Shown: piece after piece, positions 21,692 to 33,541 of the stretch | Layout: every line of letters begins with the position of its first letter | Numbering within the stretch: position 1 is the first letter of the stretch | From: an uncultured bacterium | Lineage (GTDB): Bacteria; Hinthialibacterota; Hinthialibacteria; Hinthialibacterales; Hinthialibacteraceae | Direction: 5' to 3' | Assembly: GCA_964517495.1 (NCBI GenBank) | Contig: CAZFER010000016.1 | Location: 31,564-95,563, forward strand | Length of the DNA stretch: 64,000 nucleotides | Notes under the pieces: model-generated | What the model saw: only the letters and a program-made list of their open reading frames with translations | Databases searched by the model: none | Told to the model about the DNA's origin: nothing | Made by a program: the position numbers and the translations under genes

Positions 21692-21780
21692 CTATCTTGC
21701 CTCCCATTAATTTACGTTGGATAGACATTGATGTGTCGTATAGTTTATAAATCGATAATGTAACACAAACCACGTTCAAT

Positions 21781-21810
21781 AAAAAAGGCACGCGCAAAAC
21801 GTGCCTTTTT
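21781..21810 (-). terminator. Intrinsic terminator after the barrel gene
   Basis: AAAAAAGGCACG-CGCAAAA-CGTGCCTTTTT. Confidence 0.75.
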
Positions 21811-21846: not shown

Positions 21847-22992
21847 TTAGAATTCATACGATAATCCAAAGACGTGCATAAAGTCTCCGTCTCCACCAGT
21901 ATCGGAGTAAATAAAGCCATAATCCAAGGTGATTTCTTCATACACATAGCCCAAACCACCGGTAAAACCGCTGACGGATGGATCAGCGCCAAAGCCGGCA
22001 TCCTCTTCATAATCAAAATTTTCAAATTGGTAACCACCGCGGAGGTAAAGATTTTCATATATTTCATATTCAGCGCCGAGGTGCACACCGAATAAGTCCT
22101 CTTCGGTATCACCCGTTGAGAAATCCAATTCACGGTTTTCAAATTTAACATCCATCGCCAGCAGCAAGGGTAAATCCACCATAGGATTCCAAGCCACACC
22201 GCCGCGCACGGCCCAGCTATCGGCATCACCGTCTCCAGCGCCACCGACTTCCCAATCGCCGATTCCATAATATCCATCCAAACCAAAGATCAGGTTTTCA
22301 CGTAATGTATATTGCAAACCAACCTGGTTGCGATGGCCGGAGAAGTCTTCGCTCACTCCAAACCATACGCCGGGATTGGGAGCGATCTCAATGAGTTCAG
22401 AATCAGATTGCCAATCAATGTAGCTGTAACGATAACCTATCGACAATCCTTCCATATATCGGTACGCTGCGGTTAAGGATACCGCATGCCGATCCAGGTT
22501 GCCTTCCGAGCCAAAAGTGGGGAAACCTGAATAGGGGCCAGCTTCGCTCTCATCATCACGGTAGTTGTAAGTAAGCCCTAATCCACCCCAATCAAATGGA
22601 TAGGCAATGCCACCGCCTAGGCTCCACAATTCCGTATCGGCATGCCCTGTTGTGGGCGTGCCAGTAAAATTCTGAGCGCTGGTGCCCGTGATTTCATCAA
22701 GATCACCTTGCAGCATGAGGACGCGTTTTTCGATAAATCCCAAACTGGCCGGGTTACCGATAAGGCCAAGTTCACCACCACGCAGAGCGCTGTACGCACC
22801 CCCCATACCGGCGGATCGCGCGGACAAACCTAAATTGTAAAACAAATATCGGTTGTAATGTGCGGAAAAATCGTTGTTTTGTGCGCTTGCCAGGTTTGGC
22901 AAGATGGCTGCACCTAACAAACTTAGCACCAACACTGGTATCCATTTACGCTTCATATTTGTGAACCCCCGCACTGAACTTATTGTTTTCAT
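21847..22992 (-). CDS. Outer-membrane beta-barrel, FadL/PorV-like
   Basis: Signal peptide; SARSAGMGGAYSA...NPASL N-terminal motif; amphipathic beta strands; LRGGY; C-terminal LSYEF. Confidence 0.8.
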   Translation of the reverse strand: MKTISSVRGFTNMKRKWIPVLVLSLLGAAILPNLASAQNNDFSAHYNRYLFYNLGLSARSAGMGGAYSALRGGELGLIGNPASLGFIEKRVLMLQGDLDEITGTSAQNFTGTPTTGHADTELWSLGGGIAYPFDWGGLGLTYNYRDDESEAGPYSGFPTFGSEGNLDRHAVSLTAAYRYMEGLSIGYRYSYIDWQSDSELIEIAPNPGVWFGVSEDFSGHRNQVGLQYTLRENLIFGLDGYYGIGDWEVGGAGDGDADSWAVRGGVAWNPMVDLPLLLAMDVKFENRELDFSTGDTEEDLFGVHLGAEYEIYENLYLRGGYQFENFDYEEDAGFGADPSVSGFTGGLGYVYEEITLDYGFIYSDTGGDGDFMHVFGLSYEF

Positions 22993-23028
22993 ACCAATGG
23001 GCCTCTTTTCTTACAAGTATTCTTCGTT

Positions 23029-25908
23029 TCAGTCAGCTGTTGACGGTAAGGTACCCGCTTCGATATCGAAATAGCCTCTCCTGGTTCCAATCAGATTATC
23101 AAAATCAACTGGATCGTTGATAATTCCTGCCGGACCAAGAATGAAGCCGTTTTCATTAAGGATATATGGCACATCTTCCACCACCGTAAAGTCGACGACA
23201 AATGGATCATTTTCCATGCGAACCACTTCAGATGGCTCACCAAATTCGGCATCGATGGTGTAAGTCATAATCTGTCCAAGAATATTCATTACGCGATAAC
23301 CCTGTACTGCTCCGTCTTCCACGATCAGATCCATTGCCATGACAGGGGCAAATTCACTGTCCTCTGGGACTGCTGGGAGGGCTGGAACAGCACCATGGGC
23401 TTGAACCCGGCCATCATTGGTCAGGATGTAATAACCCAGGTTGACACCCGGCTGAGCCGGATCTTCAACCACTTCAAGGTCAGCCGCGATGGCCACTGGA
23501 CGCTCAATCTCTACCCGGCCAAATCGAATGGTCTGGGTAAAGACCTCATCACCTTGGTGGACAGCACTACCGAATGCATGTACTCGCCCAAAGCGGTCAA
23601 TCACAAGGTATCCCTCGGCATTCGCGCCAAGCGGTTCAAGATCAAGGTAATCACCGAATTCGGACAGCGCGGTTCCACCACTCGAAGGCTTCTGTATCTG
23701 TTCAGGGAACACTGAGCCAGCTTTTGTGAGGAACACGGTATTTTCGCCGACTAACTCGAGATCAACTGGTGCAAGAACATCAGCATCAAATGCAGCCAGT
23801 TCACCTGTTTCAAATCCACGTTCGATCAGGATTCCCTGTTGTGACAACACCACAAGCCCCGTGGCCGGTTCAACCACCTGTTCTGGTGTTGGCGTTGAGG
23901 TGGGTTGTTCTGGCGTCGGCGTTGGAGAGGCCGTCGGCTCAATCGTTGGTGTCGGTTCAGGTGTTGGTGTATCTGTCGGACCTGGTGTCTCCGTGGGTTC
24001 AGGTGTCGGTGTATCTGTTGGCACCGGTGTCGGGGATGCTTCCGGAGTTTGCGTTGGCGTGAACGTTGGTTCCGGAGTTGCTGTCGCTACCGGGCTTTCT
24101 GTCGGTGTGTTGGTCGGTTCCGGAGTCGGTGTATCTTCTGGTGATTCCGTTGGTGTCGCTACCGGGCTTTCTGTCGGTGTATTAGTCGGTTCCGGAGTCG
24201 GTGTATCTTCAGGTGATTCCGTTGGGGTCGAGGTTGCTACAGGCGACTCAGTCGGAGTATTGGTTGGTTCCGGAGTTGGTGTATCTTCTGGTGATTCCGT
24301 TGGCGTCGCTACCGGGCTTTCTGTGGGTGTATTAGTCGGTTCCGGTGTAGGAGTATCTTCCGGTGACTCTGTTGGAGTCGATGTCGCTACCGGACTTTCT
24401 GTGGGTGTATTGGTTGGCTCCGGCGTTGGTGTATCTTCTGGTGACTCTGTGGGAGTCGCTACCGGAGATTCAGTTGGTGTATTGGTTGGTTCAGGTGTCG
24501 GTGTATCTTCCGGTGACTCTGTCGGTGTTGAGGTTGATACCTCGGTTGGAGTTGAAGTAGGCTCTTCTGTCGGTGTATTGGTTGGCTCTGGAGTTGGTGT
24601 ATCTTCAGGTGACTCTGTTGGTGTTGAGGTTGGTTGAGGTTCAGGAGTATTTGTCGGAGTGGATGTTGGTTCCGGCAAAGGTGTAGAAGTCGGTGATTCT
24701 GTTGGTGTTGGAGTATCCTCAGGTTGAGCCCCTAATTCAACAACGGCAGACTGCGCACTGACACCTTCAACTGGTAAAAAGTCAGTTCCAAATAAATCTG
24801 TAATTTCCACCCCCAATTCAGTGGAAGCGGAAGGAGTATCAATCACATTAAAGGAAATAATAACAAGTTCAAGTTCACCCAGGGGATCAGCTCCTGCTTG
24901 GAAATCGTTGATGGCCAGCACTCCCGCCTGGTTGGAATTTACATTGGTGGGCGCCCCGAAATCAGACGAACCAGCCGCTGTTGAATCAAACTGTAAAACA
25001 TTCTGGTCATAATTGACGTTAACTTGATAAGAACCTAATGCAGTATCAACATTAGCGATTAAACGCGCTTGAACAGTCTGGCCTGTTTCAAAAGGTCCGC
25101 CATCCACTACAATACCTACTGTATTAGCAGGAACTTGAAGCAAATTAAACGCGAACGGCCTTATATAATTTCGTTTCGCTGAAGCAATAATGGCTTGATT
25201 GGGATTCTGGATAAGGCCGGCCGCCACCGCGGCAATAAACTGGGCATCACCAATATCAACTCGACCATTATTATTCATATCAACATTATCATTGGGCAAG
25301 TTTGATATTAAGCCAGCAGCAAAAGCGGCAACCATTTGGGCATCACCAATGTCAACGCGTCCATTTCCATTGGCATCGCCCAATACGCCTTCCGCTTGGA
25401 TTTGAACATCCGCCGGATCAACGGCTGAAATATCAATATTTAATCCTTCAGGCTGAGAAAAGGCTTTTTGAAAACCAATATATTTTGTGTAACTCACAGA
25501 GGTTGAAAGCGTTCCCTCTGTTTCAGTTTCCACATTCAATGCACCGATGGATTGGGCTTCTGAATTACTGAAACTGGCATCTTTTCCTACTAAGGAGGAT
25601 TGAATGGTTATGACATTTCCATCCAGGTTCACTGTACTAATGGGTTCTCCAGCAGTACTCGCCGATGCCCATGCCGAACCGTTGGGAGTATAATCAATCG
25701 AGGAAACGGTGACGCCTTCGAGTTGGATTTGCAGCAAAAATGCGCTAATCGCCTCCGTCGCTTGGAGTTGTATATCATAACTAACCGTCTCTCCCACCTT
25801 AGCGCTATCGGTTTGAGGTTGAAGTATGACTTGATCGCTAAAAGATGCGCTTATTCCATATAATAATATAATAGATAAGGCGCATGATTTGATTAACGAT
25901 TTCAACAT
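23029..25908 (-). CDS. Secreted multidomain protein: cohesin-like, dockerin, cohesin, Pro/Thr/Glu linker, C-terminal beta-repeat domain
   Basis: Signal peptide; dockerin GDANGNGRVDIGDAQ...DMNNNGRVDIGDAQ; cohesin GQTVQARL...GSYQVNVNYDQNVLQF...GELELVIISFNV; long TPTP repeats. Confidence 0.85.
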   Translation of the reverse strand: MLKSLIKSCALSIILLYGISASFSDQVILQPQTDSAKVGETVSYDIQLQATEAISAFLLQIQLEGVTVSSIDYTPNGSAWASASTAGEPISTVNLDGNVITIQSSLVGKDASFSNSEAQSIGALNVETETEGTLSTSVSYTKYIGFQKAFSQPEGLNIDISAVDPADVQIQAEGVLGDANGNGRVDIGDAQMVAAFAAGLISNLPNDNVDMNNNGRVDIGDAQFIAAVAAGLIQNPNQAIIASAKRNYIRPFAFNLLQVPANTVGIVVDGGPFETGQTVQARLIANVDTALGSYQVNVNYDQNVLQFDSTAAGSSDFGAPTNVNSNQAGVLAINDFQAGADPLGELELVIISFNVIDTPSASTELGVEITDLFGTDFLPVEGVSAQSAVVELGAQPEDTPTPTESPTSTPLPEPTSTPTNTPEPQPTSTPTESPEDTPTPEPTNTPTEEPTSTPTEVSTSTPTESPEDTPTPEPTNTPTESPVATPTESPEDTPTPEPTNTPTESPVATSTPTESPEDTPTPEPTNTPTESPVATPTESPEDTPTPEPTNTPTESPVATSTPTESPEDTPTPEPTNTPTESPVATPTESPEDTPTPEPTNTPTESPVATATPEPTFTPTQTPEASPTPVPTDTPTPEPTETPGPTDTPTPEPTPTIEPTASPTPTPEQPTSTPTPEQVVEPATGLVVLSQQGILIERGFETGELAAFDADVLAPVDLELVGENTVFLTKAGSVFPEQIQKPSSGGTALSEFGDYLDLEPLGANAEGYLVIDRFGRVHAFGSAVHQGDEVFTQTIRFGRVEIERPVAIAADLEVVEDPAQPGVNLGYYILTNDGRVQAHGAVPALPAVPEDSEFAPVMAMDLIVEDGAVQGYRVMNILGQIMTYTIDAEFGEPSEVVRMENDPFVVDFTVVEDVPYILNENGFILGPAGIINDPVDFDNLIGTRRGYFDIEAGTLPSTAD
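23880..24725 (-). repeat. Coding tandem repeat: 7 copies of ESPEDTPTPEPTNTPTE, six of them arranged as a 50-aa (150-bp) unit repeated about 3 times
   Basis: Alternating 24-aa and 26-aa units (…ESPVA / …ESPVATS) seen in the translation. Confidence 0.9.
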
Positions 25909-26123: not shown

Positions 26124-27284
26124 ATGAAAATCTTAATCCTTCAACGATTCGATCTTTCTTCGGTTTCTTGTGCACGGCGTGTTTTGTGCCAAACAGAAGA
26201 ATTACTTAAACGTGGTCATGAGGTATATCTTACTGATTTTGTTCATCATAAACGCCAACAGGAAATGCCTTCAGTGGCTAATCTGGAGAGGTTAGGCGCC
26301 CATATAATTCCTATTGAACGAAGTGTAAAGCATTATTTTAAGAACTTCATGTCGTTACGAAAAATTACTCCTCCGCCTGATATTATTCATTTGTGGAAAG
26401 CCTATCCTGATGCTTCATTGCTTGCATTTGCCCTTTCAAAATATTGGAAAATCCCTTTGCACTACGACTATGACGATTGGGAAAAGGGGATTGCGGCTGA
26501 ATTGACTGGCTCAAAAGTAGCCGGTTGGATTGCAGGCCGATGGGATCGGCTTATTCCCCATTTGAGCCACACCATTACCGCTGCAAGTCAGTTTCTTAAA
26601 AAAAAGTTAATGTACTGGGGAATACCGGAATCCATCATTTGGGATGCCCCGGTAGGAGCTGATCTTGAGTGCTTTCATCCTCGCCAAAAAGACCATCACT
26701 TACTTGAAAAATTAAACTTATCCACACCCGTTTTAGTTTATAGCGGTCAACTGGAGGTGGCCAGTTATGCTGAACAAGCCATTGAGGTATTCGATATCGT
26801 CCGTCGGGAAATCCATTCCACTCGCCTCTTAATAATTGGTGGAGGCAGAAAATTGGACTATTTAAAATCCATAGCCAGCGAGAAAACGATTTCCGATCGA
26901 GTGTATTTCACAGATTATATACAGAGCGATCAAATCCCATCTTATTTGTCACTTGCGGATGTGGCTTTGGCTCCATTCGAAAAAAACAACGTCACCCGTG
27001 CAAAATCACCACTAAAAATCGCGGAATACCTGGCGATGGGTTTGCCGGTGGTTGCCTCTGATGTGGGTGAGACACAGGCCATGACCGTTGGAGCAGGAGC
27101 CTGCGTTCCCTGTGGTGACATCAAACAAATGGCTGACAAAACCTTGTGGATCTTAAAACACCCCGGCGTGCAAGAAAGCATGCGTATTGCGGGACGGCAA
27201 CTGGCAGAGCGTAAATATAATTGGAAAGCCCATACTGACTCTCTGGGAGCCGCATATAAACACTCCACAAAATTCTTTCGATAG
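26124..27284 (+). CDS. Glycosyltransferase family 4
   Basis: ADVALAP...SPLKIAEYLAMGLPVVASDVG (EX7E region). Confidence 0.9.
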   Translation: MKILILQRFDLSSVSCARRVLCQTEELLKRGHEVYLTDFVHHKRQQEMPSVANLERLGAHIIPIERSVKHYFKNFMSLRKITPPPDIIHLWKAYPDASLLAFALSKYWKIPLHYDYDDWEKGIAAELTGSKVAGWIAGRWDRLIPHLSHTITAASQFLKKKLMYWGIPESIIWDAPVGADLECFHPRQKDHHLLEKLNLSTPVLVYSGQLEVASYAEQAIEVFDIVRREIHSTRLLIIGGGRKLDYLKSIASEKTISDRVYFTDYIQSDQIPSYLSLADVALAPFEKNNVTRAKSPLKIAEYLAMGLPVVASDVGETQAMTVGAGACVPCGDIKQMADKTLWILKHPGVQESMRIAGRQLAERKYNWKAHTDSLGAAYKHSTKFFR

Positions 27285-27566: not shown

Positions 27567-28394
27567 ATGGACTTGGATTTTATTAAACGATGCATACACT
27601 GCGATGCTCCCACAGAGCCGTTAACCCTGCAAGAAGAGAAGGAACTCATCCGCAGTTATCAAAACGGCAATACAGATGCACGAAAGAAATTGATTGAATC
27701 GAACATCCGCTTTGTTGTTAAAATGGCGTTGCAATATAGAAACCAGGGTCTTTGCCTGTCTGACCTGATTCAGGAAGGAAACCTTGGATTGATTGAAGCG
27801 TTGGAAAAATTTAATCCGGAAAAGAACTGCCGGTTAATCACCTATGCTTCATGGTGGATTCGTCTTTATCTGCAGCGGGCCATCGAGCAAAAAACACGCC
27901 CGGTTAACCTCCCTATTAATAAATTGGAACTCTTGCGAAAAGTCCGTTCGTATGAGACCTCGTTTGAAATGAGCAACGGACGGAAACCCTATTCAGAAGA
28001 AATCGCGGATGGATTGAAGGCGGATATCAACAAGATCGAGAAAATTGGCCATCAAGCCCCTTCTTTCCATACCATCCATCATCAGGATTCTGACCATCCC
28101 GGCATGGAAACAGTGTTGCAGGATGAAAAATATGTTGATCCCCGCGACCGAATTTGGCTGAAGGAAGCCACCAACCGGCTAAAAACAGCCATGCAAGTTT
28201 TAAATAATAAAGAACGTGAAGTGCTCTCCTATCGTTATAACTTTGATAATGGCGGCAAACGGCTCAGTTTGCGCAAGGTTGGGAAGAAGATGGGAATGAG
28301 TGCTGAAGGTGTTCGACGAATTGAAGAGCAAGCCATGAGCAAATTACGACGGCCCAATATAAAAGAAAGGATGGAAGCGTTATTAGCCAACTGA
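27567..28394 (+). CDS. RNA polymerase sigma-70 family factor (RpoD/RpoS/RpoH-like, no region 1.1)
   Basis: LIESNIRFVVKMA, DLIQEGNLGLIEA, TYASWWIR, region 4 SLRKVG...SAEGVRRIEEQAMSKLR. Confidence 0.92.
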   Translation: MDLDFIKRCIHCDAPTEPLTLQEEKELIRSYQNGNTDARKKLIESNIRFVVKMALQYRNQGLCLSDLIQEGNLGLIEALEKFNPEKNCRLITYASWWIRLYLQRAIEQKTRPVNLPINKLELLRKVRSYETSFEMSNGRKPYSEEIADGLKADINKIEKIGHQAPSFHTIHHQDSDHPGMETVLQDEKYVDPRDRIWLKEATNRLKTAMQVLNNKEREVLSYRYNFDNGGKRLSLRKVGKKMGMSAEGVRRIEEQAMSKLRRPNIKERMEALLAN

Positions 28395-28556: not shown

Positions 28557-28841
28557 ATGAAAATTCAAAGTTTGCAACATAAAGGATTGAAGTTACTCCT
28601 TGAGTATAATGACGAACGGGGTATCCGTAGCGATTTAATCCCAAGGATACGAAATATTCTAACCGCTCTTATAGCGGCATCAGACATTAATGGTGTTAAA
28701 GGCCCCCCTGGTTGGCGGATTCACAAGTTATCCGGGGAGAGAAGTGAGACATGGAGTATTTCTATTTCTGGTAATTGGCGTCTAACTTTTATGATCGAAA
28801 ACAATGAAATTTATAACCTGAATTTGGAGGATTATCACTGA
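28557..28841 (+). CDS. higB: HigB-like toxin (RelE/ParE family)
   Basis: HKGLK...PPGWRIHKLSG...WSISISGNWRLTF...LEDYH. Confidence 0.92.
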   Translation: MKIQSLQHKGLKLLLEYNDERGIRSDLIPRIRNILTALIAASDINGVKGPPGWRIHKLSGERSETWSISISGNWRLTFMIENNEIYNLNLEDYH

Positions 28842-29146
28842 TGGTCAATACGGAGATTAAAATTGGCATGAAACCATCTCATCCAGGTGGTTTTATACGC
28901 ATGGAAATTCTTGAAGAATTGGACTTATCCATATCCCGAGCGGCCGAAATTTTAGGGATTCGGCGTGCCACGCTTTCAGATCTTATAAATGAGAAAGCGT
29001 CTCTATCCCCAGAAATGGCGCTCAGGATTGAGAAAGCATTTGGTGTCTCCATGGATACTTTATTACGCATGCAAGCGTGGCATGATTGTTATGTGATGCG
29101 TCAACACGAAGACGAAATTAAAGTGGATCGTTATATTCCTTCCTGA
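28841..29146 (+). CDS. higA: HigA antitoxin (HTH)
   Basis: PSHPGGFI...AAEILGIRRATLSDLINEKASLSPEMALRIEKAFG...LLRMQ. Confidence 0.93.
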   Translation: MVNTEIKIGMKPSHPGGFIRMEILEELDLSISRAAEILGIRRATLSDLINEKASLSPEMALRIEKAFGVSMDTLLRMQAWHDCYVMRQHEDEIKVDRYIPS

Positions 29147-29202: not shown

Positions 29203-30108
29203 TCATTGATCGATGTCTTCCATTGATTTGCCGATGACGAGTTCGATTCCTCTTTTGGAGGCCAGCTCATAAATCTCTCCCATGGTTTTTAAAAAGGGCG
29301 TATTTCCTCGCCATAAGGGAAAATGCCCCAGGCGGCGGGGTAAGGCGGCTGGAAGATCAGGAATGTGAACCTCTCCCAGAAAATGTTCAGGGATTTCCTG
29401 GCCATCCCAGAATTTTGAGATGTCGATCTCAAGAGGTTGAGGTTTGTAAGATTCAACCGCAAACGATTCAACAGCCGGTGCTGAGGTTTCATGATCGGCA
29501 TGAGGCGTTATTCGGGATATTAATTCTTCACGCTCCATCCCGCGTAGTTTAAAGATGAGGAAGGGATCACGATCAAATTCCTCACCCAACAGATAAAAAA
29601 TAGCAGCGATGTGTTTGCATGGATTGGACCAATCGGGGCAATTGCAATCGCTTTCCAGGTCGATATCCAATGAAGGGAAGAGAGATACCAGATTTTCATG
29701 AAATACATACTCGATGTCATCTGGCATCTCACCCGCGAGTAATTTGGCGATGAATAAGGGGCGCTCGCCGATATCGTTTATGATCTGATTCCAATCTTTT
29801 TTCTCGATTTTACTGATTTTAAGGATGACAGAGTATGGGTTTCGGCGTGAACCTTGAACTTTGGCTTTGACACTTCCTTTTTCAATATCAATGGATAAAA
29901 CCTGGCCACGGCGTGCGTAATTTTTCCCCCGTGCCAATCGCTTGCCAATGCGGGAACTTTCCACCACTTCGATCCAGCGTTTGCCCCACCAGCTGGATGT
30001 GAAAGCCCCCTGGCGTGATTGGGCTTTGATACCCCCTTTGGCTTCAAGAGGGGTGGAATGAGGAAAATAGAAGTAATCTCGATCGTAATATCGTCGTCTT
30101 GGTGCCAT
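29203..30108 (-). CDS. SWIM zinc-finger protein
   Basis: RLARGKNYARRG, CNCPDWSNPCKHIAA, DPFLIFKLRG. Confidence 0.9.
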   Translation of the reverse strand: MAPRRRYYDRDYFYFPHSTPLEAKGGIKAQSRQGAFTSSWWGKRWIEVVESSRIGKRLARGKNYARRGQVLSIDIEKGSVKAKVQGSRRNPYSVILKISKIEKKDWNQIINDIGERPLFIAKLLAGEMPDDIEYVFHENLVSLFPSLDIDLESDCNCPDWSNPCKHIAAIFYLLGEEFDRDPFLIFKLRGMEREELISRITPHADHETSAPAVESFAVESYKPQPLEIDISKFWDGQEIPEHFLGEVHIPDLPAALPRRLGHFPLWRGNTPFLKTMGEIYELASKRGIELVIGKSMEDIDQ

Positions 30109-30138
30109 GTTTTTACCTTTTATTTCATAATTCTCATA

Positions 30139-33100
30139 TCACACAACTGCCCGGTTTCGGTCGAGGGCAAATAGATCTTTTAGTTCCTGAGTGGACAATT
30201 CAGTAAGCCAAGCTTCACCGGTTCCGACAATGCCTTCGGCGAGTTCCTTTTTTTGTTCGATCAATTGATCGATGCGTTCTTCCAAGGTACCTGTGCATAG
30301 AAATTTATGGACCTGAACATTTTTGGTTTGCCCGATACGAAAGACACGGTCGGTGGCTTGATTTTCAACAGCGGGGTTCCACCAGCGATCGAAGTGGAAA
30401 ACATGGTTGGCTCGGGTGAGGTTCAGGCCAGTGCCTCCCGCTTTAAGAGAAAGGACAAATATATTGGGGCCGTGATCTTCATTTTGAAAATAGTGGATCA
30501 TGGCATCCCGTTTTTTCTTGGGAACGCCACCGTGCAGGAAGAAAACCCGCCGCCCAAACTGTTCCTGTAAAAATTGCTGTAGCATGGAACCCATCACGGT
30601 ATATTGGGAAAAGATGAGTGCCCTTTCATTCATTTCAATGATTTCTTCGAGCATTTCCAACAATCGGCTGAGTTTTCCTGAGCGTCCAAGGATGGATGAA
30701 TTATCATTCAAAAAATGAGCGGGGTGATTGCACACCTGTTTCAATCTTGTGAGGGTGGACAACACGAGGCCTTTTCGTTGAATGCCTTCGGATTGGGCTA
30801 AATCTTTGGCGGCTTCGTCCACAACGGCGGAATAGAGCGACGCTTGTTCTTTGGTGAGGTTGCAAAAGACTTTCATTTCCATCTTATCGGGAAGATCGGA
30901 GATGATTGATTTTTCAGTTTTCAAACGCCGGAGGATAAATGGGCCGGTTAATCGTTTAAGCCGATTAATTGCGTCTTCATCATGCCATGCCTGGATGGGG
31001 ATGAAATAATTTTCCTTAAAGTTTTTAAGTGAACCCAGGAATCCTGGATTAAGAAAATCCAGGATAGACCAAAGATCGCCAATGTTGTTTTCCACCGGTG
31101 TGCCGGTTAAAGCTAAGCGGTAATCAGTTTGGAGCGTTCGCGCGGCTTTGGCTTGTTTGGTTTGGGGATTTTTTATATTTTGTGCTTCGTCCAGGATAAC
31201 AGCTCGCCAGGAGAGTTCTTTAAAAATCTCAATATCGCGATGCAACAAGGCAAAGCTGGTAATCACAAGCGCCTGTTGAAGGGCCTTTTTCTTGAATGTG
31301 TTTCCTTTTTTGCGTGTGCTGCCGTGATGAATCATGACGGGAAGTTCGGGGGTAAACCGTTCGGCCTCTTTTTGCCAATTACCAACGACTGACGTGGGGC
31401 AGACTAACAAAACCGGCTTTTTACCTTGTTCATGCCAATCGTGTTGAATGAGCGCAAGTGCCTGGATGGTTTTACCCAAGCCCATATCATCCGCCAGGCA
31501 GGCCCCCAATCCCCATTGGCTTAGGAAGGACATCCATGAGTATCCGCGGCGCTGGTATGGACGCAAGGTACCGTTAAATGATTCATAGGGTTGTTGTTCC
31601 TCAAACGTTTCTTTTCCTTCCAAGCGGTTAAGCAGTTCGCCAATCCAGCCATCGGCTTTTACGCCCGCAAAATCAAATCCATCCGGCGTATTAGCTCGCC
31701 CCAGTGCCATTTGGACGACTTCCTGAAGAGAGGCAGACGAAGAAGTTTTGGATTTCAGAAATTCAACGGCGGCTTTGATTTCTTCGGCGTTGATGTGCAT
31801 CCACTGTCCGCGAACTTTAACCAACGGCACTTTCATTTCCGCCAGTTCTTTCAACTCTTCCAATGTTAAATCCTGATCACCAATGGCAGTTTGCCATTTG
31901 AATGTGAGGATGCTCGAAAGTGAAAAACCGGCATCGCTTTGCATGGCAGGGCTTTTAAAATTGGCGCGCATGGAAAGGCGTTGATTGGTTCCCTTCCCTG
32001 TCCACCATGATGGAAGAATGACACTGAAGCCCATATCCTTTAGCATGAGGGCGCTTTCATTTAAAAAAGAGAATGCGCCATGTTCATTGGTCTCATACCC
32101 ATCAGGTTTTGGACCTTCCAAACTACGTTCGATTGACGAATTAATCCCGCTGGCTTGACCCAATGAAAATAAGAGATATTCCGACGGAGAAAAACCAGGA
32201 CGTTGCAAGTATTTGGCAGACCGGCTTTTTGGATTCCATACTTCTTTGGCCTCAATCAAGAGGCTTGGATCGGAGACATCTTCAAGGAGATATCGAACTT
32301 TCCAGTGGCTATTGGCTGATTTTCGTTTTTGAACCATAGAATCTTCTTCAGGTTCTTCCAACCGAAAGCATAAACGAAAGGGAGAATCACTGGTTAAAGC
32401 GATTGGTTTTTTCCATTCTCTTACACGCTTAACCAATTCAGCCAATTCATTTGGATCACCGGTGAGCTCAGGGTTGGGTGATCGCAAAGCATAAAGCCAC
32501 TGGTCGTGGAGGCTGTCGAATTTTAGTTGACGAGTTTTGGAGTTAAACAGGTATGTACTATTCCATTCCATTGAATATGTCCGCACTAAACCATCCACTG
32601 CCATATCTATCCACTGGGACAATATGACTTCGCTGGGAGTTTGTGGGTGAGATTCCGAGTCCTGCGAAAGTGCGCGGCAAACGGAGGGCATGGCTTGAGC
32701 CAGATCGATCAGTTGGCGGCGATCCTCATTAAGAACTACGGGTTTCCAGCGTGCAATGTACTTCCCATTTTCGAAAGACAGATCCGGTAAATAGTGCTGT
32801 CGTGTGGCTAAGCTTCCAGCGAGTTGCAATGCCGTGATCCAATACTGTAGATCCGAGCCGAGAATAACTCCGGGGATTAGGATTTGCTGGTTACGACATT
32901 GGCATAAGAATGGAATGGCATTTGGGGGATCAAGGGGAAACGCTTCAATTTGCCAGGGGAGTATTTTTGTTTTGTGACGAGTTGTGGGTGGATCGCTTAT
33001 TAATGGGCTTGAGGGAATGGGTTGATTTCCCTTGGTGGGAAGATGAACAAATAATGTTTTGTAATTCTTTTTAACCACTTTACCGGGATAAGAACTTGCT

Positions 33101-33267
33101 TTGAGTGTTTCTATTATTTGTTTGATCCCGGCATCAAAGGGGTATTTATTTACTGTCTTGGATTTTGTAATTGCCTTTTTGGTGGATTTGCTATCCTCTT
33201 GATCGGTGGATTGTTCACCCCAAAGCCATAGGATATTTTCAAACCATCCAGCATGTAACACAATCAT
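30139..33267 (-). CDS. SNF2-family helicase (DUF3670-type N-terminus)
   Basis: LRPYQ, LADDMGLGKT, LDEAQNIKN, LTGTPVEN, SLKAGGTGLNL, WWNPAVENQATDR; ATG at 33267 with a GGAG RBS. Confidence 0.93.
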   Translation of the reverse strand: MIVLHAGWFENILWLWGEQSTDQEDSKSTKKAITKSKTVNKYPFDAGIKQIIETLKASSYPGKVVKKNYKTLFVHLPTKGNQPIPSSPLISDPPTTRHKTKILPWQIEAFPLDPPNAIPFLCQCRNQQILIPGVILGSDLQYWITALQLAGSLATRQHYLPDLSFENGKYIARWKPVVLNEDRRQLIDLAQAMPSVCRALSQDSESHPQTPSEVILSQWIDMAVDGLVRTYSMEWNSTYLFNSKTRQLKFDSLHDQWLYALRSPNPELTGDPNELAELVKRVREWKKPIALTSDSPFRLCFRLEEPEEDSMVQKRKSANSHWKVRYLLEDVSDPSLLIEAKEVWNPKSRSAKYLQRPGFSPSEYLLFSLGQASGINSSIERSLEGPKPDGYETNEHGAFSFLNESALMLKDMGFSVILPSWWTGKGTNQRLSMRANFKSPAMQSDAGFSLSSILTFKWQTAIGDQDLTLEELKELAEMKVPLVKVRGQWMHINAEEIKAAVEFLKSKTSSSASLQEVVQMALGRANTPDGFDFAGVKADGWIGELLNRLEGKETFEEQQPYESFNGTLRPYQRRGYSWMSFLSQWGLGACLADDMGLGKTIQALALIQHDWHEQGKKPVLLVCPTSVVGNWQKEAERFTPELPVMIHHGSTRKKGNTFKKKALQQALVITSFALLHRDIEIFKELSWRAVILDEAQNIKNPQTKQAKAARTLQTDYRLALTGTPVENNIGDLWSILDFLNPGFLGSLKNFKENYFIPIQAWHDEDAINRLKRLTGPFILRRLKTEKSIISDLPDKMEMKVFCNLTKEQASLYSAVVDEAAKDLAQSEGIQRKGLVLSTLTRLKQVCNHPAHFLNDNSSILGRSGKLSRLLEMLEEIIEMNERALIFSQYTVMGSMLQQFLQEQFGRRVFFLHGGVPKKKRDAMIHYFQNEDHGPNIFVLSLKAGGTGLNLTRANHVFHFDRWWNPAVENQATDRVFRIGQTKNVQVHKFLCTGTLEERIDQLIEQKKELAEGIVGTGEAWLTELSTQELKDLFALDRNRAVV

Positions 33268-33541
33268 GCTTGTTACTCCGCTCAATCAATTGAAATAAAA
33301 TTCTTCCAAATTTCCTCTCTATTTCTATTAATTTATCATCAATTACCCTAAATCGAAATGCTTATAAATTACTATTAACTGGACTATGGAGAAACAACAC
33401 TCTGAGAATTCTTATCTTATTTCACTGTCCAATTTTTGGGGAGTAGCTCAGCTTTCTGGCAACCATCCTATTTTAAAATCAAAACTATAGTGTTATAAAT
33501 GAGATTCAAGTATTTACCATTATTCTCAGGAGACCTTAAAC

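Follow-up and report, generated by a model that had tools for sequence, protein, structure and literature searches.

What does a secreted protein with cohesin-type modules and a dockerin do when its gene is closely followed by that of an outer-membrane barrel? The question is raised by a two-gene unit (genes A and B) of an uncultured mat bacterium, analyzed here within a window of 64,000 nucleotides. The best explanation overall, with a probability of about 0.45, is that A serves as a surface adaptor that is anchored through the B barrel independently of type IX secretion (T9SS).

Gene unit and modules of protein A

Gene B lies 36 bp downstream of A on the same strand and is followed by an intrinsic terminator (Table 1). 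The terminator hairpin has a stability of -17 kcal/mol (z -3.4), and equally stable folds occur in 2 of 200 shuffles; it is absent from the list of a consensus terminator scan. The single strand, the short gap and a terminator only after B define the operon layout. A and B may accordingly be read as a surface protein with its own outer-membrane anchor, as tentatively as the overall explanation to which this reading belongs. The open reading frames, the 959-residue length, the gap and the terminator given by the first-pass annotation all agree with the ORF listing and with the hairpin and its T-run. The motifs quoted there are present (NGRVDIGDAQ twice, YLVIDRFGRVHAFG, YYILTNDGRVQAHG and, in B, SARSAGMGGA). 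The proposed order of cohesin-like domain, dockerin, cohesin, long linker and repeat domain is real, and the Pfam scan finds no catalytic domain in A, as had been stated.

Two conserved neighbors of the pair are recorded as context. Orthologs of the GT4 glycosyltransferase adjoin gene A in 10 fetched loci with 56–68% identity, and those of the sigma-70 factor occur in 7 fetched loci.

Table 1. Features of the A/B locus, with positions in the window
Feature	Position	Strand	Description
Sigma-70 family factor	27567..28394	+	Pfam Sigma70_r2 and Sigma70_r4
GT4 glycosyltransferase	26124..27284	+	divergently transcribed from A; Pfam Glycos_transf_1, 6.2e-22
Gene A	23029..25908	-	959-aa secreted modular protein (ORF listing); parts follow in order
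Signal peptide	25843..25908	-	residues ~1-22, MLKSLIKSCALSIILLYGISAS, read from sequence
Domain 1	25399..25839	-	residues 24-170; divergent cohesin-like beta-sandwich
Dockerin	25189..25398	-	residues 171-240; halves DANGNGRVDIGDAQ.. and DMNNNGRVDIGDAQ..
Domain 2	24715..25137	-	residues 258-398; cohesin
Pro/Thr/Glu/Ser linker	23854..24714	-	residues ~399-685, ~285 aa, tandem repeats
C-terminal domain	23032..23853	-	residues 686-959; predicted six-bladed beta-propeller
Gene B	21847..22992	-	381-aa outer-membrane beta-barrel, FadL superfamily by sequence (ORF listing)
Intrinsic terminator	21780..21810	-	3' of gene B; hairpin GGCACG...CGTGCC and T-run

The N-terminus of A is conserved among orthologs, with AF2 pLDDT below 50 at residues 1–23, and its signal peptide has no conserved lipobox cysteine. 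Domain 1 is modeled as a confident beta-sandwich, with strands across residues 26–144 and block pLDDT of 82–91. Its top Foldseek match is the cohesin dyad 3l8q (E 3.5e-15), the best single cohesin follows at 2e-8, and VIA-align superimposes 273 residues of 3l8q_B over model residues 22–397. An ESM-Atlas feature search places 21 of 30 matches within the cohesin set. Comparison with cohesins by hhalign gives 30% over 43 columns, Pfam and the PDB sequences give no match, and the domain HMM run on the genome matches this ORF alone. What had been called the first cohesin stands as a cohesin-like sandwich specific to the protein family of A; sequence criteria do not make it a cohesin.

The dockerin comprises two near-identical halves, each a calcium loop followed by a helix (residues 187–197 and 219–229 in the AF2 model). 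Pfam Dockerin_1 matches residues 176–225 with 29.8 bits, above the cut-off of 22.9, so that this module and its repeated halves are as originally described; the domain is also matched (E ≤ 0.01) in 7 of 11 orthologs. Domain 2 was likewise correctly named. Its model (residues 260–397) has a clear cohesin fold and superimposes on 6kgc_A with a VIA-align Z of 16.4 and an rmsd of 2.1 Å over 132 residues. Rows 1–49 of the 50 listed are, judged by their titles, cohesin modules or cohesin-containing entries. The Pfam Cohesin score, between 20.8 and 23.9 bits, is slightly below the cut-off of 24.1; the family matches 9 of 11 orthologous N-termini at E ≤ 0.01. Against the Pfam-positive cohesins of its own genome the hhalign probability is 96%.

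The linker, previously put at about 280 residues, differs in length between orthologs; Tandem Repeats Finder reports periods of 72 nt (6.1 copies) and 150 nt (3.0 copies) at 24074–24528. The C-terminal domain with repeated motifs, also noted before, folds in the AF2 model (pLDDT 77.2, pTM 0.78) as a beta-propeller. Each blade has a strand pair of the G-Y-h-h-L-D-x-x-G-x-V-x-x-x-G type and a D-h-E motif. Six-bladed propellers lead a wide VIA-align search (1rwi_B: Z 12.8, rmsd 3.8, 209 residues aligned), and no Pfam family matches. Out of 1.84 billion entries, 37 representatives belong to the family at E ≤ 1e-3, of which 15 remain at E ≤ 1e-10. As modeled, this is a new six-bladed propeller of a small, lineage-limited family.

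The barrel, its conservation and its contact with the propeller

Protein B carries a signal peptide and the SARSAGMGGA motif. Its profile matches FadL (3pf1_A, E 5.9e-6) and TodX (E 2.2e-5) among the PDB sequences. NCBIfam PorV_fam gives 52.8 bits (cut-off 90; E 4.3e-14), T9SS_OM_PorV gives 13.1 (cut-off 250), and B stays under every PorV/PorQ cut-off. Pfam Toluene_X reaches 16.5 bits with a cut-off of 29.7, and PorP_SprF has no match to B in the Pfam scan at E ≤ 1. By its sequence B is a FadL-superfamily barrel with weak PorV/PorQ-family similarity, which upholds its earlier placement in the FadL/PorV superfamily. All four residues of the hatch motif GNPA (G79, N80, P81 and A82) are invariant, so B could still be a small-molecule channel. 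B is single copy, its HMM matching one ORF genome-wide.

All 19 further genomes from the family of this bacterium have the barrel, against 0 of 6 genomes of the two sister families; elsewhere in the class there are weak relatives only. Fourteen of the 19 loci were fetched, and in the remaining 5 the barrel match lies within ~1.5 kb of the contig's low end. A propeller-ending ORF is found directly upstream of the barrel on the same strand in all 14; the eight loci whose genes are intact have gaps of 28–74 bp, and adjacency holds over barrel identities of 34–63%. The propeller family is co-distributed with the barrel, always adjacent in the fetched loci, and the gene pair whose synteny the first-pass annotation proposed to check is strongly conserved. 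In genome G020, from one genus, a PKD domain precedes the propeller, cohesin and dockerin are not found in the propeller protein, and the barrel is still next to it; ten further loci have the cohesin-dockerin cassette. Since the pair is kept while the payload changes, propeller and barrel look like a constant anchor unit that is separable from the payload.

Complex prediction for the barrel (residues 37–381) and the propeller weakly favors the earlier idea of anchoring through the barrel. The score is 0.52 (runs of 0.47, 0.52 and 0.56) and 0.00 for the best of three controls; 116 of 157 solved complexes attain the pass mark, as do 2 of 215 mismatched pairs, and a passing score of 0.60 or less is seen for 18 of the 157 solved complexes and both of the passing mismatches. 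Agreement between the runs covers at least 88% of contacts, and partner pLDDT is at least 69. No propeller-barrel fusion was found among longer proteins, which is weak evidence against the contact.

Alternative readings of the cassette and the pair

Genome-wide there are 12 matches each for dockerin and cohesin, in diverse surface proteins that are non-enzymatic or non-glycosidase. The 10 other dockerin ORFs carry FG-GAP, WD40, beta-helix/lectin, FGE-sulfatase/CBM96, DUF7619 or M10 peptidase domains, or nothing, and no glycoside hydrolase is found in any of them. This census, together with the lack of a carbohydrate-binding module in A (Pfam), goes against the cellulosome-like scaffold of the first-pass annotation, in which enzymes would be displayed with the help of T9SS and B would be the PorV shuttle. 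Such a scaffold would account for the cohesin and dockerin modules and for the PorV_fam similarity of B, and a published relative from the same phylum is said to degrade polysaccharides and to possess many glycoside hydrolases together with 39 sulfatases (PMC9324843). It is nevertheless very improbable. Searches of the genome, which is 99.15% complete, found no SprA, GldM, GldN or cargo tail Por_Secre_tail, though they were run without a positive control; B lies far under the T9SS_OM_PorV cut-off; and the words cohesin, dockerin and cellulosome do not appear in that paper. The related premise that cohesins and dockerins normally sit on separate proteins was too strong. Two further proteins encoded in this genome show the cohesin-dockerin-cohesin order, and 14 of 15 unrelated database matches have a C-terminal cohesin-dockerin tandem. 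Outside cellulosomes, proteins that combine both modules are common. These same tandems, and a dockerin placed between two cohesin-type domains in a single chain, would also suit a self-assembling lattice or fiber, the main idea of the first-pass annotation, in which the symmetric dockerin of one A enters the cohesin of the next, head to tail, as a coat on stalks. Near-identical halves in known dockerins permit two binding orientations. Moreover, orthologs L031 and L036 switch dockerin and domain 2 type together: they share 12–25% (dockerin) and 11–25% (domain 2) with the other nine rows and 40% and 31% with each other, with domain 1 at 26–44%. The joint switch is expected if the two modules are a cognate pair, but a single recombination event would give it without binding because they are contiguous, and it is seen in two taxa only. 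The AF2 model of the cassette has no confident inter-domain packing (pTM 0.52), and it is equally conceivable that the dockerin binds within its own chain, blocking itself, or takes cohesins of other proteins. We consider the lattice unlikely.

It is likewise improbable that A and B are merely co-regulated, B being a conventional FadL-type channel whose substrates are hydrophobic and A a binding protein, secreted or periplasmic, that makes no contact with B. The FadL and TodX matches, the invariant NPA of the hatch motif and the scores beneath all PorV/PorQ cut-offs fit this well, but adjacency throughout the fetched loci, its survival when the N-terminal payload is replaced and, weakly, the predicted complex argue against it. 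B might instead be a dedicated export or threading partner in a split autotransporter-like arrangement, with the propeller periplasmic or plugging the barrel and the linker passing through or beside it. A has a Sec signal only, with no other outer-membrane route identified, and for the same reason the propeller, or all of A, may be periplasmic. The anchor domain is C-terminal, with a long unstructured linker between it and the payload, and the conserved termini of the propeller domain (domain residues 1–25 and 253–274), which have pLDDT below 50 when modeled alone, could fold only against a partner. The lumen of FadL-type barrels is filled by the hatch, however, and the literature excerpts consulted contain no FadL-family protein translocator; we regard export through B as quite doubtful.

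Relation to known systems and proposed role

The closest parallels to an anchor of this kind are the PorP/SprF systems with type B CTD proteins (SprB-SprF, PG1035-PorP). There, as here, the gene of a large surface protein adjoins that of its own FadL-family barrel (sprB next to sprF), and the barrel binds the protein non-covalently through its C-terminal domain, as proposed for A and B; FadL-family 14-stranded barrels are described as holding surface proteins in this way (PMC9143113, in the part consulted). A further such case is BamG, whose extracellular loops bind BamH (PMC12578637). A differs from the CTD proteins in ending with a 270-residue six-bladed propeller rather than a small beta-sandwich. 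In the Bacteroidota type IX system the propeller protein PorZ is held by PorQ. The present genome yielded no T9SS translocon, motor or CTD signal (again without a positive control), and B, from another phylum, is set apart from both kinds of partner by its sub-cut-off PorV/PorQ scores and the missing PorP_SprF match. With FadL and TodX transporters B shares the hatch-like N-terminal segment with its invariant NPA and the weak Toluene_X similarity, whereas it is shorter (381 against about 420–450 residues) and tied into one operon with the gene for a large modular protein that is secreted.

For the cassette, the nearest relatives are the non-cellulosomal cohesin-dockerin proteins of Archaeoglobus, ANME archaea and Clostridium perfringens, and adaptor scaffoldins, where both modules also share one polypeptide. 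The top structural matches of domain 2 include solved cohesins of the non-cellulosomal kind (2vo8, Z 16.4; 2xdh, Z 15.7). Single chains with both modules are described from organisms, and in proteins, that have no connection with cellulose degradation (PMC9012536, as far as consulted). In A, by contrast, the cassette is N-terminal, in the order cohesin-like, dockerin, cohesin, and stands on a Pro/Thr stalk; the proposed tie to a diderm outer membrane is by propeller and barrel, not by SLH domains, sortase or an S-layer domain. A clostridial cellulosome scaffoldin resembles A in its cohesins, dockerin, Pro/Thr-rich linkers and lack of a catalytic domain, yet A has only two cohesin-type modules and no carbohydrate-binding module, and its host is a diderm in whose genome no dockerin-bearing glycoside hydrolases were found.

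The adaptor reading would work as follows. A would be exported by Sec, and its propeller would bind B. B probably holds A at the cell, so that A would be kept at the outer membrane, presumably surface-exposed, with neither a lipid anchor nor type IX secretion. The stalk of ~285 residues would keep the cassette distant from the cell. The dockerin above its Pfam cut-off, the cohesin fold of domain 2 and the genome's cohesin and dockerin matches suggest that the cassette is a calcium-dependent protein-protein connector. It would tie A to the cell's own cohesin- or dockerin-bearing surface proteins; the candidate partners are the FG-GAP, WD40, lectin/beta-helix, peptidase and FGE-sulfatase proteins, and possibly further copies of A.

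Organization of the two-gene unit and domains of protein A

The unit consists of gene A, for a secreted modular protein, and gene B, for an outer-membrane barrel protein, and the two genes are separated by only 36 bases. A hairpin followed by a T-run is located 3' of gene B (folding energy −17 kcal/mol, z −3.4; 2 of 200 shuffled sequences are as stable), while no such hairpin with T-run follows the end of gene A. This terminator is absent from the listing of a simple consensus scan. The start of gene B is uncertain. A Shine-Dalgarno-like AAGAGG lies 9 nt ahead of the first ATG, and M13 is an invariant methionine in the alignment of 24 sequences; a start at M13 makes the gap between the genes 72 bp. 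The stretch or part of it is present in 6 DNA runs from microbial-mat metagenomes of 2 studies; RNA runs are absent from the list. Every motif quoted in the first-pass annotation is found in the ORFs and its observation is confirmed overall; its interpretation is supported in part, as described below. Elsewhere in the window, two small overlapping ORFs have a toxin-antitoxin-like layout, and a SWIM zinc-finger protein gene adjoins a helicase gene.

Coordinates of the two-gene unit and of other genes in the window
Feature	Position	Strand	Description
Gene A	23029..25908	(-)	ORF, 959 aa
Gene B	21847..22992	(-)	ORF, 381 aa, same strand as A
Small ORF pair	28557-29146	(+)	ORFs of 94 and 101 aa, overlapping at 28841
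SWIM/SNF2 pair	29203-33285	(-)	301-aa SWIM zinc-finger protein beside 1048-aa SNF2-family helicase with DUF3670

Residues 1–22 of protein A have the features of a Sec signal peptide but no conserved lipobox. Lipoprotein anchoring was considered and rejected: a cysteine within the hydrophobic part of the signal peptide is found in some orthologues only, at varying positions and without lipobox context, and the cysteine of the window protein itself is early, at residue 9. The dockerin (residues 171–240) matches Pfam PF00404 over residues 176–225 with 29.8 bits (gathering cut-off 22.9), and 7 of 11 orthologues give a match at E ≤ 0.01. The Ca-binding loops of dockerins have an EF-hand-like consensus. 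Two loops of the form D-x-N-x-N-G-x-V-D-x-x-D are present, the model places helices at residues 187–197 and 219–229, and the two loop-helix halves hardly differ from each other.

Domain 2 (residues 258–398) scores 23.9 bits against Pfam PF00963 in the window protein versus a gathering cut-off of 24.1; database relatives reach 27.4–38.5 bits, and a Cohesin match at E ≤ 0.01 is found in 9 of 11 orthologues. Compared with the Pfam-positive cohesins of the same genome, the hhalign probability is 96%. In the AF2 model of the N-terminal part of protein A (11-row alignment, mean pLDDT 77.3, pTM 0.52), domain 2 superposes on 6kgc_A with a VIA-align Z of 16.4 and an rmsd of 2.1 Å for 132 of 144 residues, and rows 1–49 of the 50 structural matches listed are cohesin entries by title. 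As modelled, domain 2 has the nine-stranded jelly-roll fold of cohesins. Domain 1 (residues 24–170) is a confident β-sandwich in the AF2 model. It has no Pfam match at E ≤ 10 except the TMEM132 cohesin-like family (E 0.23) and 0 matches to PDB sequences at E ≤ 10, and hhalign gives 30% over 43 columns against cohesins and 4% against domain 2. By sequence criteria, domain 1 does not classify as a cohesin. The best Foldseek match of the whole model is the two-cohesin dyad 3l8q (E 3.5e-15, versus 2e-8 for the best single cohesin); with VIA-align, 273 residues of the dyad align over model residues 22–397, covering both domains, and 21 of 30 Atlas feature matches of domain 1 fall within the cohesin set. 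These structural matches suggest a divergent cohesin, and we call domain 1 cohesin-like.

The linker (residues ~399–685) is composed of Pro/Thr/Glu/Ser tandem repeats with a period of 72/150 nt, and its length differs among orthologues. The C-terminal domain (residues 686–959) belongs to no Pfam family. Its AF2 model, obtained from a 21-row alignment, has a pLDDT of 77.2 and a pTM of 0.78. Foldseek returns generic propellers alone (E about 2e-4, TM 0.3–0.48), and the full VIA-align scan gives a flat list with six-bladed propellers on top. The best match is the PknD sensor domain (1rwi_B; Z 12.8, rmsd 3.8, 209 aligned), with an NHL domain (Z 12.8), LDLR YWTD (12.7) and Cj1041c (12.6) close by. 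The alignment shows six copies of a repeat in which a D-h-E motif accompanies a pair of strands. When 1.84 billion representatives were searched exhaustively, 37 matched at E ≤ 1e-3, of which 15 reached E ≤ 1e-10. The propeller is an ordinary fold in a small family.

The barrel and its predicted contact with the propeller

The product of gene B had been described as a PorV/FadL-like barrel. The FadL part of this description stands at the superfamily level, but the protein is below every PorV/PorQ cut-off: NCBIfam scores are 52.8 bits versus 90 for PorV_fam, 22.9 versus 220 for T9SS_PorQ and 13.1 versus 250 for T9SS_OM_PorV. In Pfam, only OMP_b-brl and Toluene_X appear, below threshold throughout (Toluene_X 16.5 bits versus 29.7), and no PorP/SprF family is found in the Pfam or NCBIfam scans at E ≤ 1. 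A profile of 24 sequences matches the PDB chains of FadL (E 5.9e-6) and TodX (E 2.2e-5). The FadL alignment covers the N-terminal hatch segment with the FadL NPA included, and residues G79, N80, P81 and A82 (GNPA) of the barrel are invariant in the 24 sequences. Since Toluene_X stays below its cut-off and the profile matches FadL chains, the barrel belongs to FadL at the superfamily level only. Scores below the curated cut-offs, the FadL/TodX matches and the invariant GNPA together identify a FadL-superfamily barrel of PorV/PorQ-family flavour, which falls in none of the curated families. The barrel is single copy in the genome by tblastn and HMM. The own-genome HMM searches find the barrel and domain 1 once each, with weak propeller-repeat matches in 11 other ORFs; tblastn with three parts of the pair finds no close paralogue in the genome and one weak propeller match, on contig C114.

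The barrel had been linked to type IX secretion. In the 99.15% complete assembly there is no match at E ≤ 0.01 to SprA (TIGR04189, PF14349), GldM (TIGR03517) or GldN (TIGR03523), nor to the cargo tail (TIGR04183, PF18962); as 0 of 14 control genomes score over a cut-off either, these negatives are provisional. The PorU model matches C23:3190-5409 with 219 bits versus a cut-off of 420, in the C25 peptidase region of a 1849-aa open frame, and this PorU-like protein may be a C25-type peptidase that serves some other function.

The first-pass annotation had proposed that the stalk is anchored through the barrel, with a multimer prediction of the C-terminal domain and the barrel as a check. The complex prediction for the barrel (residues 37–381) and the propeller scores 0.52 (runs 0.47, 0.52 and 0.56), with a contact agreement of at least 88% and a partner pLDDT of at least 69. 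The pair beats its controls, the best of 3 scoring 0.00, but a value of 0.52 is weak support. Of 157 solved complexes, 116 reach the pass mark, as do 2 of 215 mismatched pairs; the passes scoring ≤ 0.60 comprise only 18 of the 157 solved complexes plus both mismatches that passed. The strong synteny prior combined with this score gives modest support for propeller-barrel binding. No propeller-barrel fusion is found at E ≤ 0.001 among the proteins of 668–2000 aa searched with the barrel, which is weak evidence. In the best-supported reading, barrel and propeller would form a T9SS-independent anchor, on which the cohesin-dockerin connector is borne on its stalk. With such an anchor the pair would resemble in function two kinds of Bacteroidota pair, PorP/SprF with type B CTD proteins and PorQ-PorZ (PMC9143113), and also BamG-BamH (PMC12578637), but A and B are within none of those families. 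The cargo gene adjoining its cognate barrel gene is common to PorP/SprF and A-B, an analogy of layout and not of membership.

Cohesin and dockerin modules in the genome

At E ≤ 0.01, Dockerin_1 and Cohesin each have 12 matches in the genome; cohesins other than those of protein A lie on contigs C1, C12, C15, C24, C33 and C41. A Pfam scan covered 16 dockerin/cohesin ORFs, 10 with dockerin matches. Apart from protein A, the dockerin is accompanied in these 10 ORFs by FG-GAP, WD40, β-helix/C-type lectin, FGE-sulfatase/CBM96, DUF7619 or M10 peptidase domains, or by no other domain. L051 (C41:29462-31588), a WD40 propeller protein of 709 aa, closes with cohesin-dockerin-cohesin, and a 2317-aa β-helix/C-type lectin/ASH protein (L052, C24:49465-56415) has the same arrangement near its C-terminus. 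In L059, a 1207-aa PA14 protein on C1, the C-terminal end consists of two cohesins spaced apart.

The cellulosome-like system proposed in the first-pass annotation is not supported by this census. No glycoside hydrolase domain is found in the 16 dockerin/cohesin ORFs at E ≤ 0.001; protein A has no CBM in Pfam and just two cohesin-type domains. The premise that cohesin and dockerin normally sit on separate proteins is too strict, as they share a chain in two other proteins of the genome and in 14 of 15 database matches. A database search for homologues of the N-terminal part gives 2 full-cassette matches (cohesin-like/dockerin/cohesin), the other 15 being found mainly via the dockerin. In 14 of 15 of these unrelated proteins (P0078–P0092), the C-terminus is formed by a cohesin with a dockerin immediately after it; several of the proteins are archaeal, with labels such as ANME-2 or Methanosarcinales, and S-layer, β-helix or subtilase domains occur among them. 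With 14 of 15 such ends, the C-terminal cohesin-dockerin tandem seems to be a module of wide distribution. For ANME archaea, single chains that carry both cohesin and dockerin outside a cellulosome have been described (PMC9012536). In the literature listed on cohesin and dockerin in one archaeal protein, no title or abstract opening deals with a cohesin-dockerin-cohesin cassette. In the paper naming the phylum (PMC9324843), the organism is a polysaccharide degrader and the words cohesin, dockerin and cellulosome have 0 occurrences each. For Cloacimonadota, a cellulosome-like complex with a T9SS-type CTD anchor has been proposed (PMC8542988), an arrangement unlike A-B.

Two orthologous loci bear on self-binding of the connector. 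In L031 (5677-6894) and L036 (5261-6511), the dockerin and domain 2 are divergent while domain 1, propeller and barrel are ordinary. Identity to the other nine rows is 12–25% for the dockerin and 11–25% for domain 2, versus 26–44% for domain 1; between the two loci it is 40% and 31% for dockerin and domain 2, respectively. The joint change is either a cassette swap or co-evolution. It fits a cognate pair of dockerin and second cohesin, but one recombination of the contiguous block gives the same picture.

Conservation of the pair and a possible surface-display system

The phylum survey included 35 genomes, 34 besides the window's own. All 19 other genomes of the window's family have the barrel, and none of the 6 genomes from the two sister families has it. 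Of the remaining three families, one gives no barrel match and two give weak matches only (E 1e-10 to 1e-20). Database homologues of the barrel have the source labels Candidatus Omnitrophota or Candidatus Hinthialibacter. Fourteen of the 19 family loci were analysed; in the other 5, the barrel match lies within about 1.5 kb of the contig's low end. An unconserved pair would have counted against the first-pass annotation. The pair is present in all 14: immediately upstream of the barrel, on the same strand, is an ORF whose C-terminal end is the propeller. Where the genes are intact (eight loci), the gap between them is 28–74 bp. Ten loci keep a divergently oriented GT4 gene, and 7 keep a gene of the sigma-70 family; the GT4 product was considered as a putative stalk glycosylase on the basis of conserved adjacency.

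The N-terminal part of protein A is more variable. The cassette is present in 10 loci, 3 of them with two dockerins. The order cohesin-like/dockerin/dockerin/cohesin is seen in L042, L033 and L035, and also in the database protein P0043. Gene A is split into two ORFs in L035 (737+288 aa) and L038 (618+404 aa), at or beside the Pro/Thr linker; a frameshift or faulty assembly of the repeat could explain the split. In the related genome G020, a PKD domain lies ahead of the propeller and no cohesin or dockerin is found there. This PKD domain, versus the cassette in ten loci, defines propeller and barrel as the constant unit and the N-terminal part as payload. Three loci of another family in the same class (L045–L047) have distant barrels of 25–27% identity that follow large secreted proteins of 695–1126 aa, with no Pfam family and only weak internal propeller-repeat matches. 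A different C-terminal segment of ~120 residues is shared by two of these large proteins and, in the third locus, by a 121-aa ORF between protein and barrel. Because they end in this other segment, the rule of a C-terminal propeller does not reach them; the layout of a large protein followed by a FadL/PorV-like barrel may be wider than the window's family.

We give a probability of roughly three in ten to an undescribed surface-display system in the window's family and, in modified form, in its phylum, with a barrel-captured propeller as anchor domain and exchangeable payloads, mostly a cohesin-dockerin-cohesin hub that networks surface proteins. A dedicated FadL/PorV-type barrel would capture the new six-bladed propeller and so tether payloads to the outer membrane of a diderm cell, with no need for type IX secretion, lipidation or a link to LPS. 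The payload of most members would be a hub on a stalk of roughly 200–320 residues that connects surface proteins of other kinds, and additional copies of the hub, in a network dependent on Ca. If true, this would be the first outer-membrane-anchored cohesin-dockerin scaffold.

To our knowledge, the surface retention of large non-lipidated proteins in diderms outside Bacteroidota is poorly known, and we know of no role assigned yet to cohesin-dockerin modules outside cellulosomes. The pair is a small, testable case for both, with a single barrel, an unnamed propeller that is always found beside it and a swappable payload. If the propeller docks, this would show that FadL/PorV-type barrels can anchor proteins independently of type IX secretion, and the pair would be a minimal anchor-plus-connector kit for surface display and a pointer to how microbial-mat cells build their surface protein layer.
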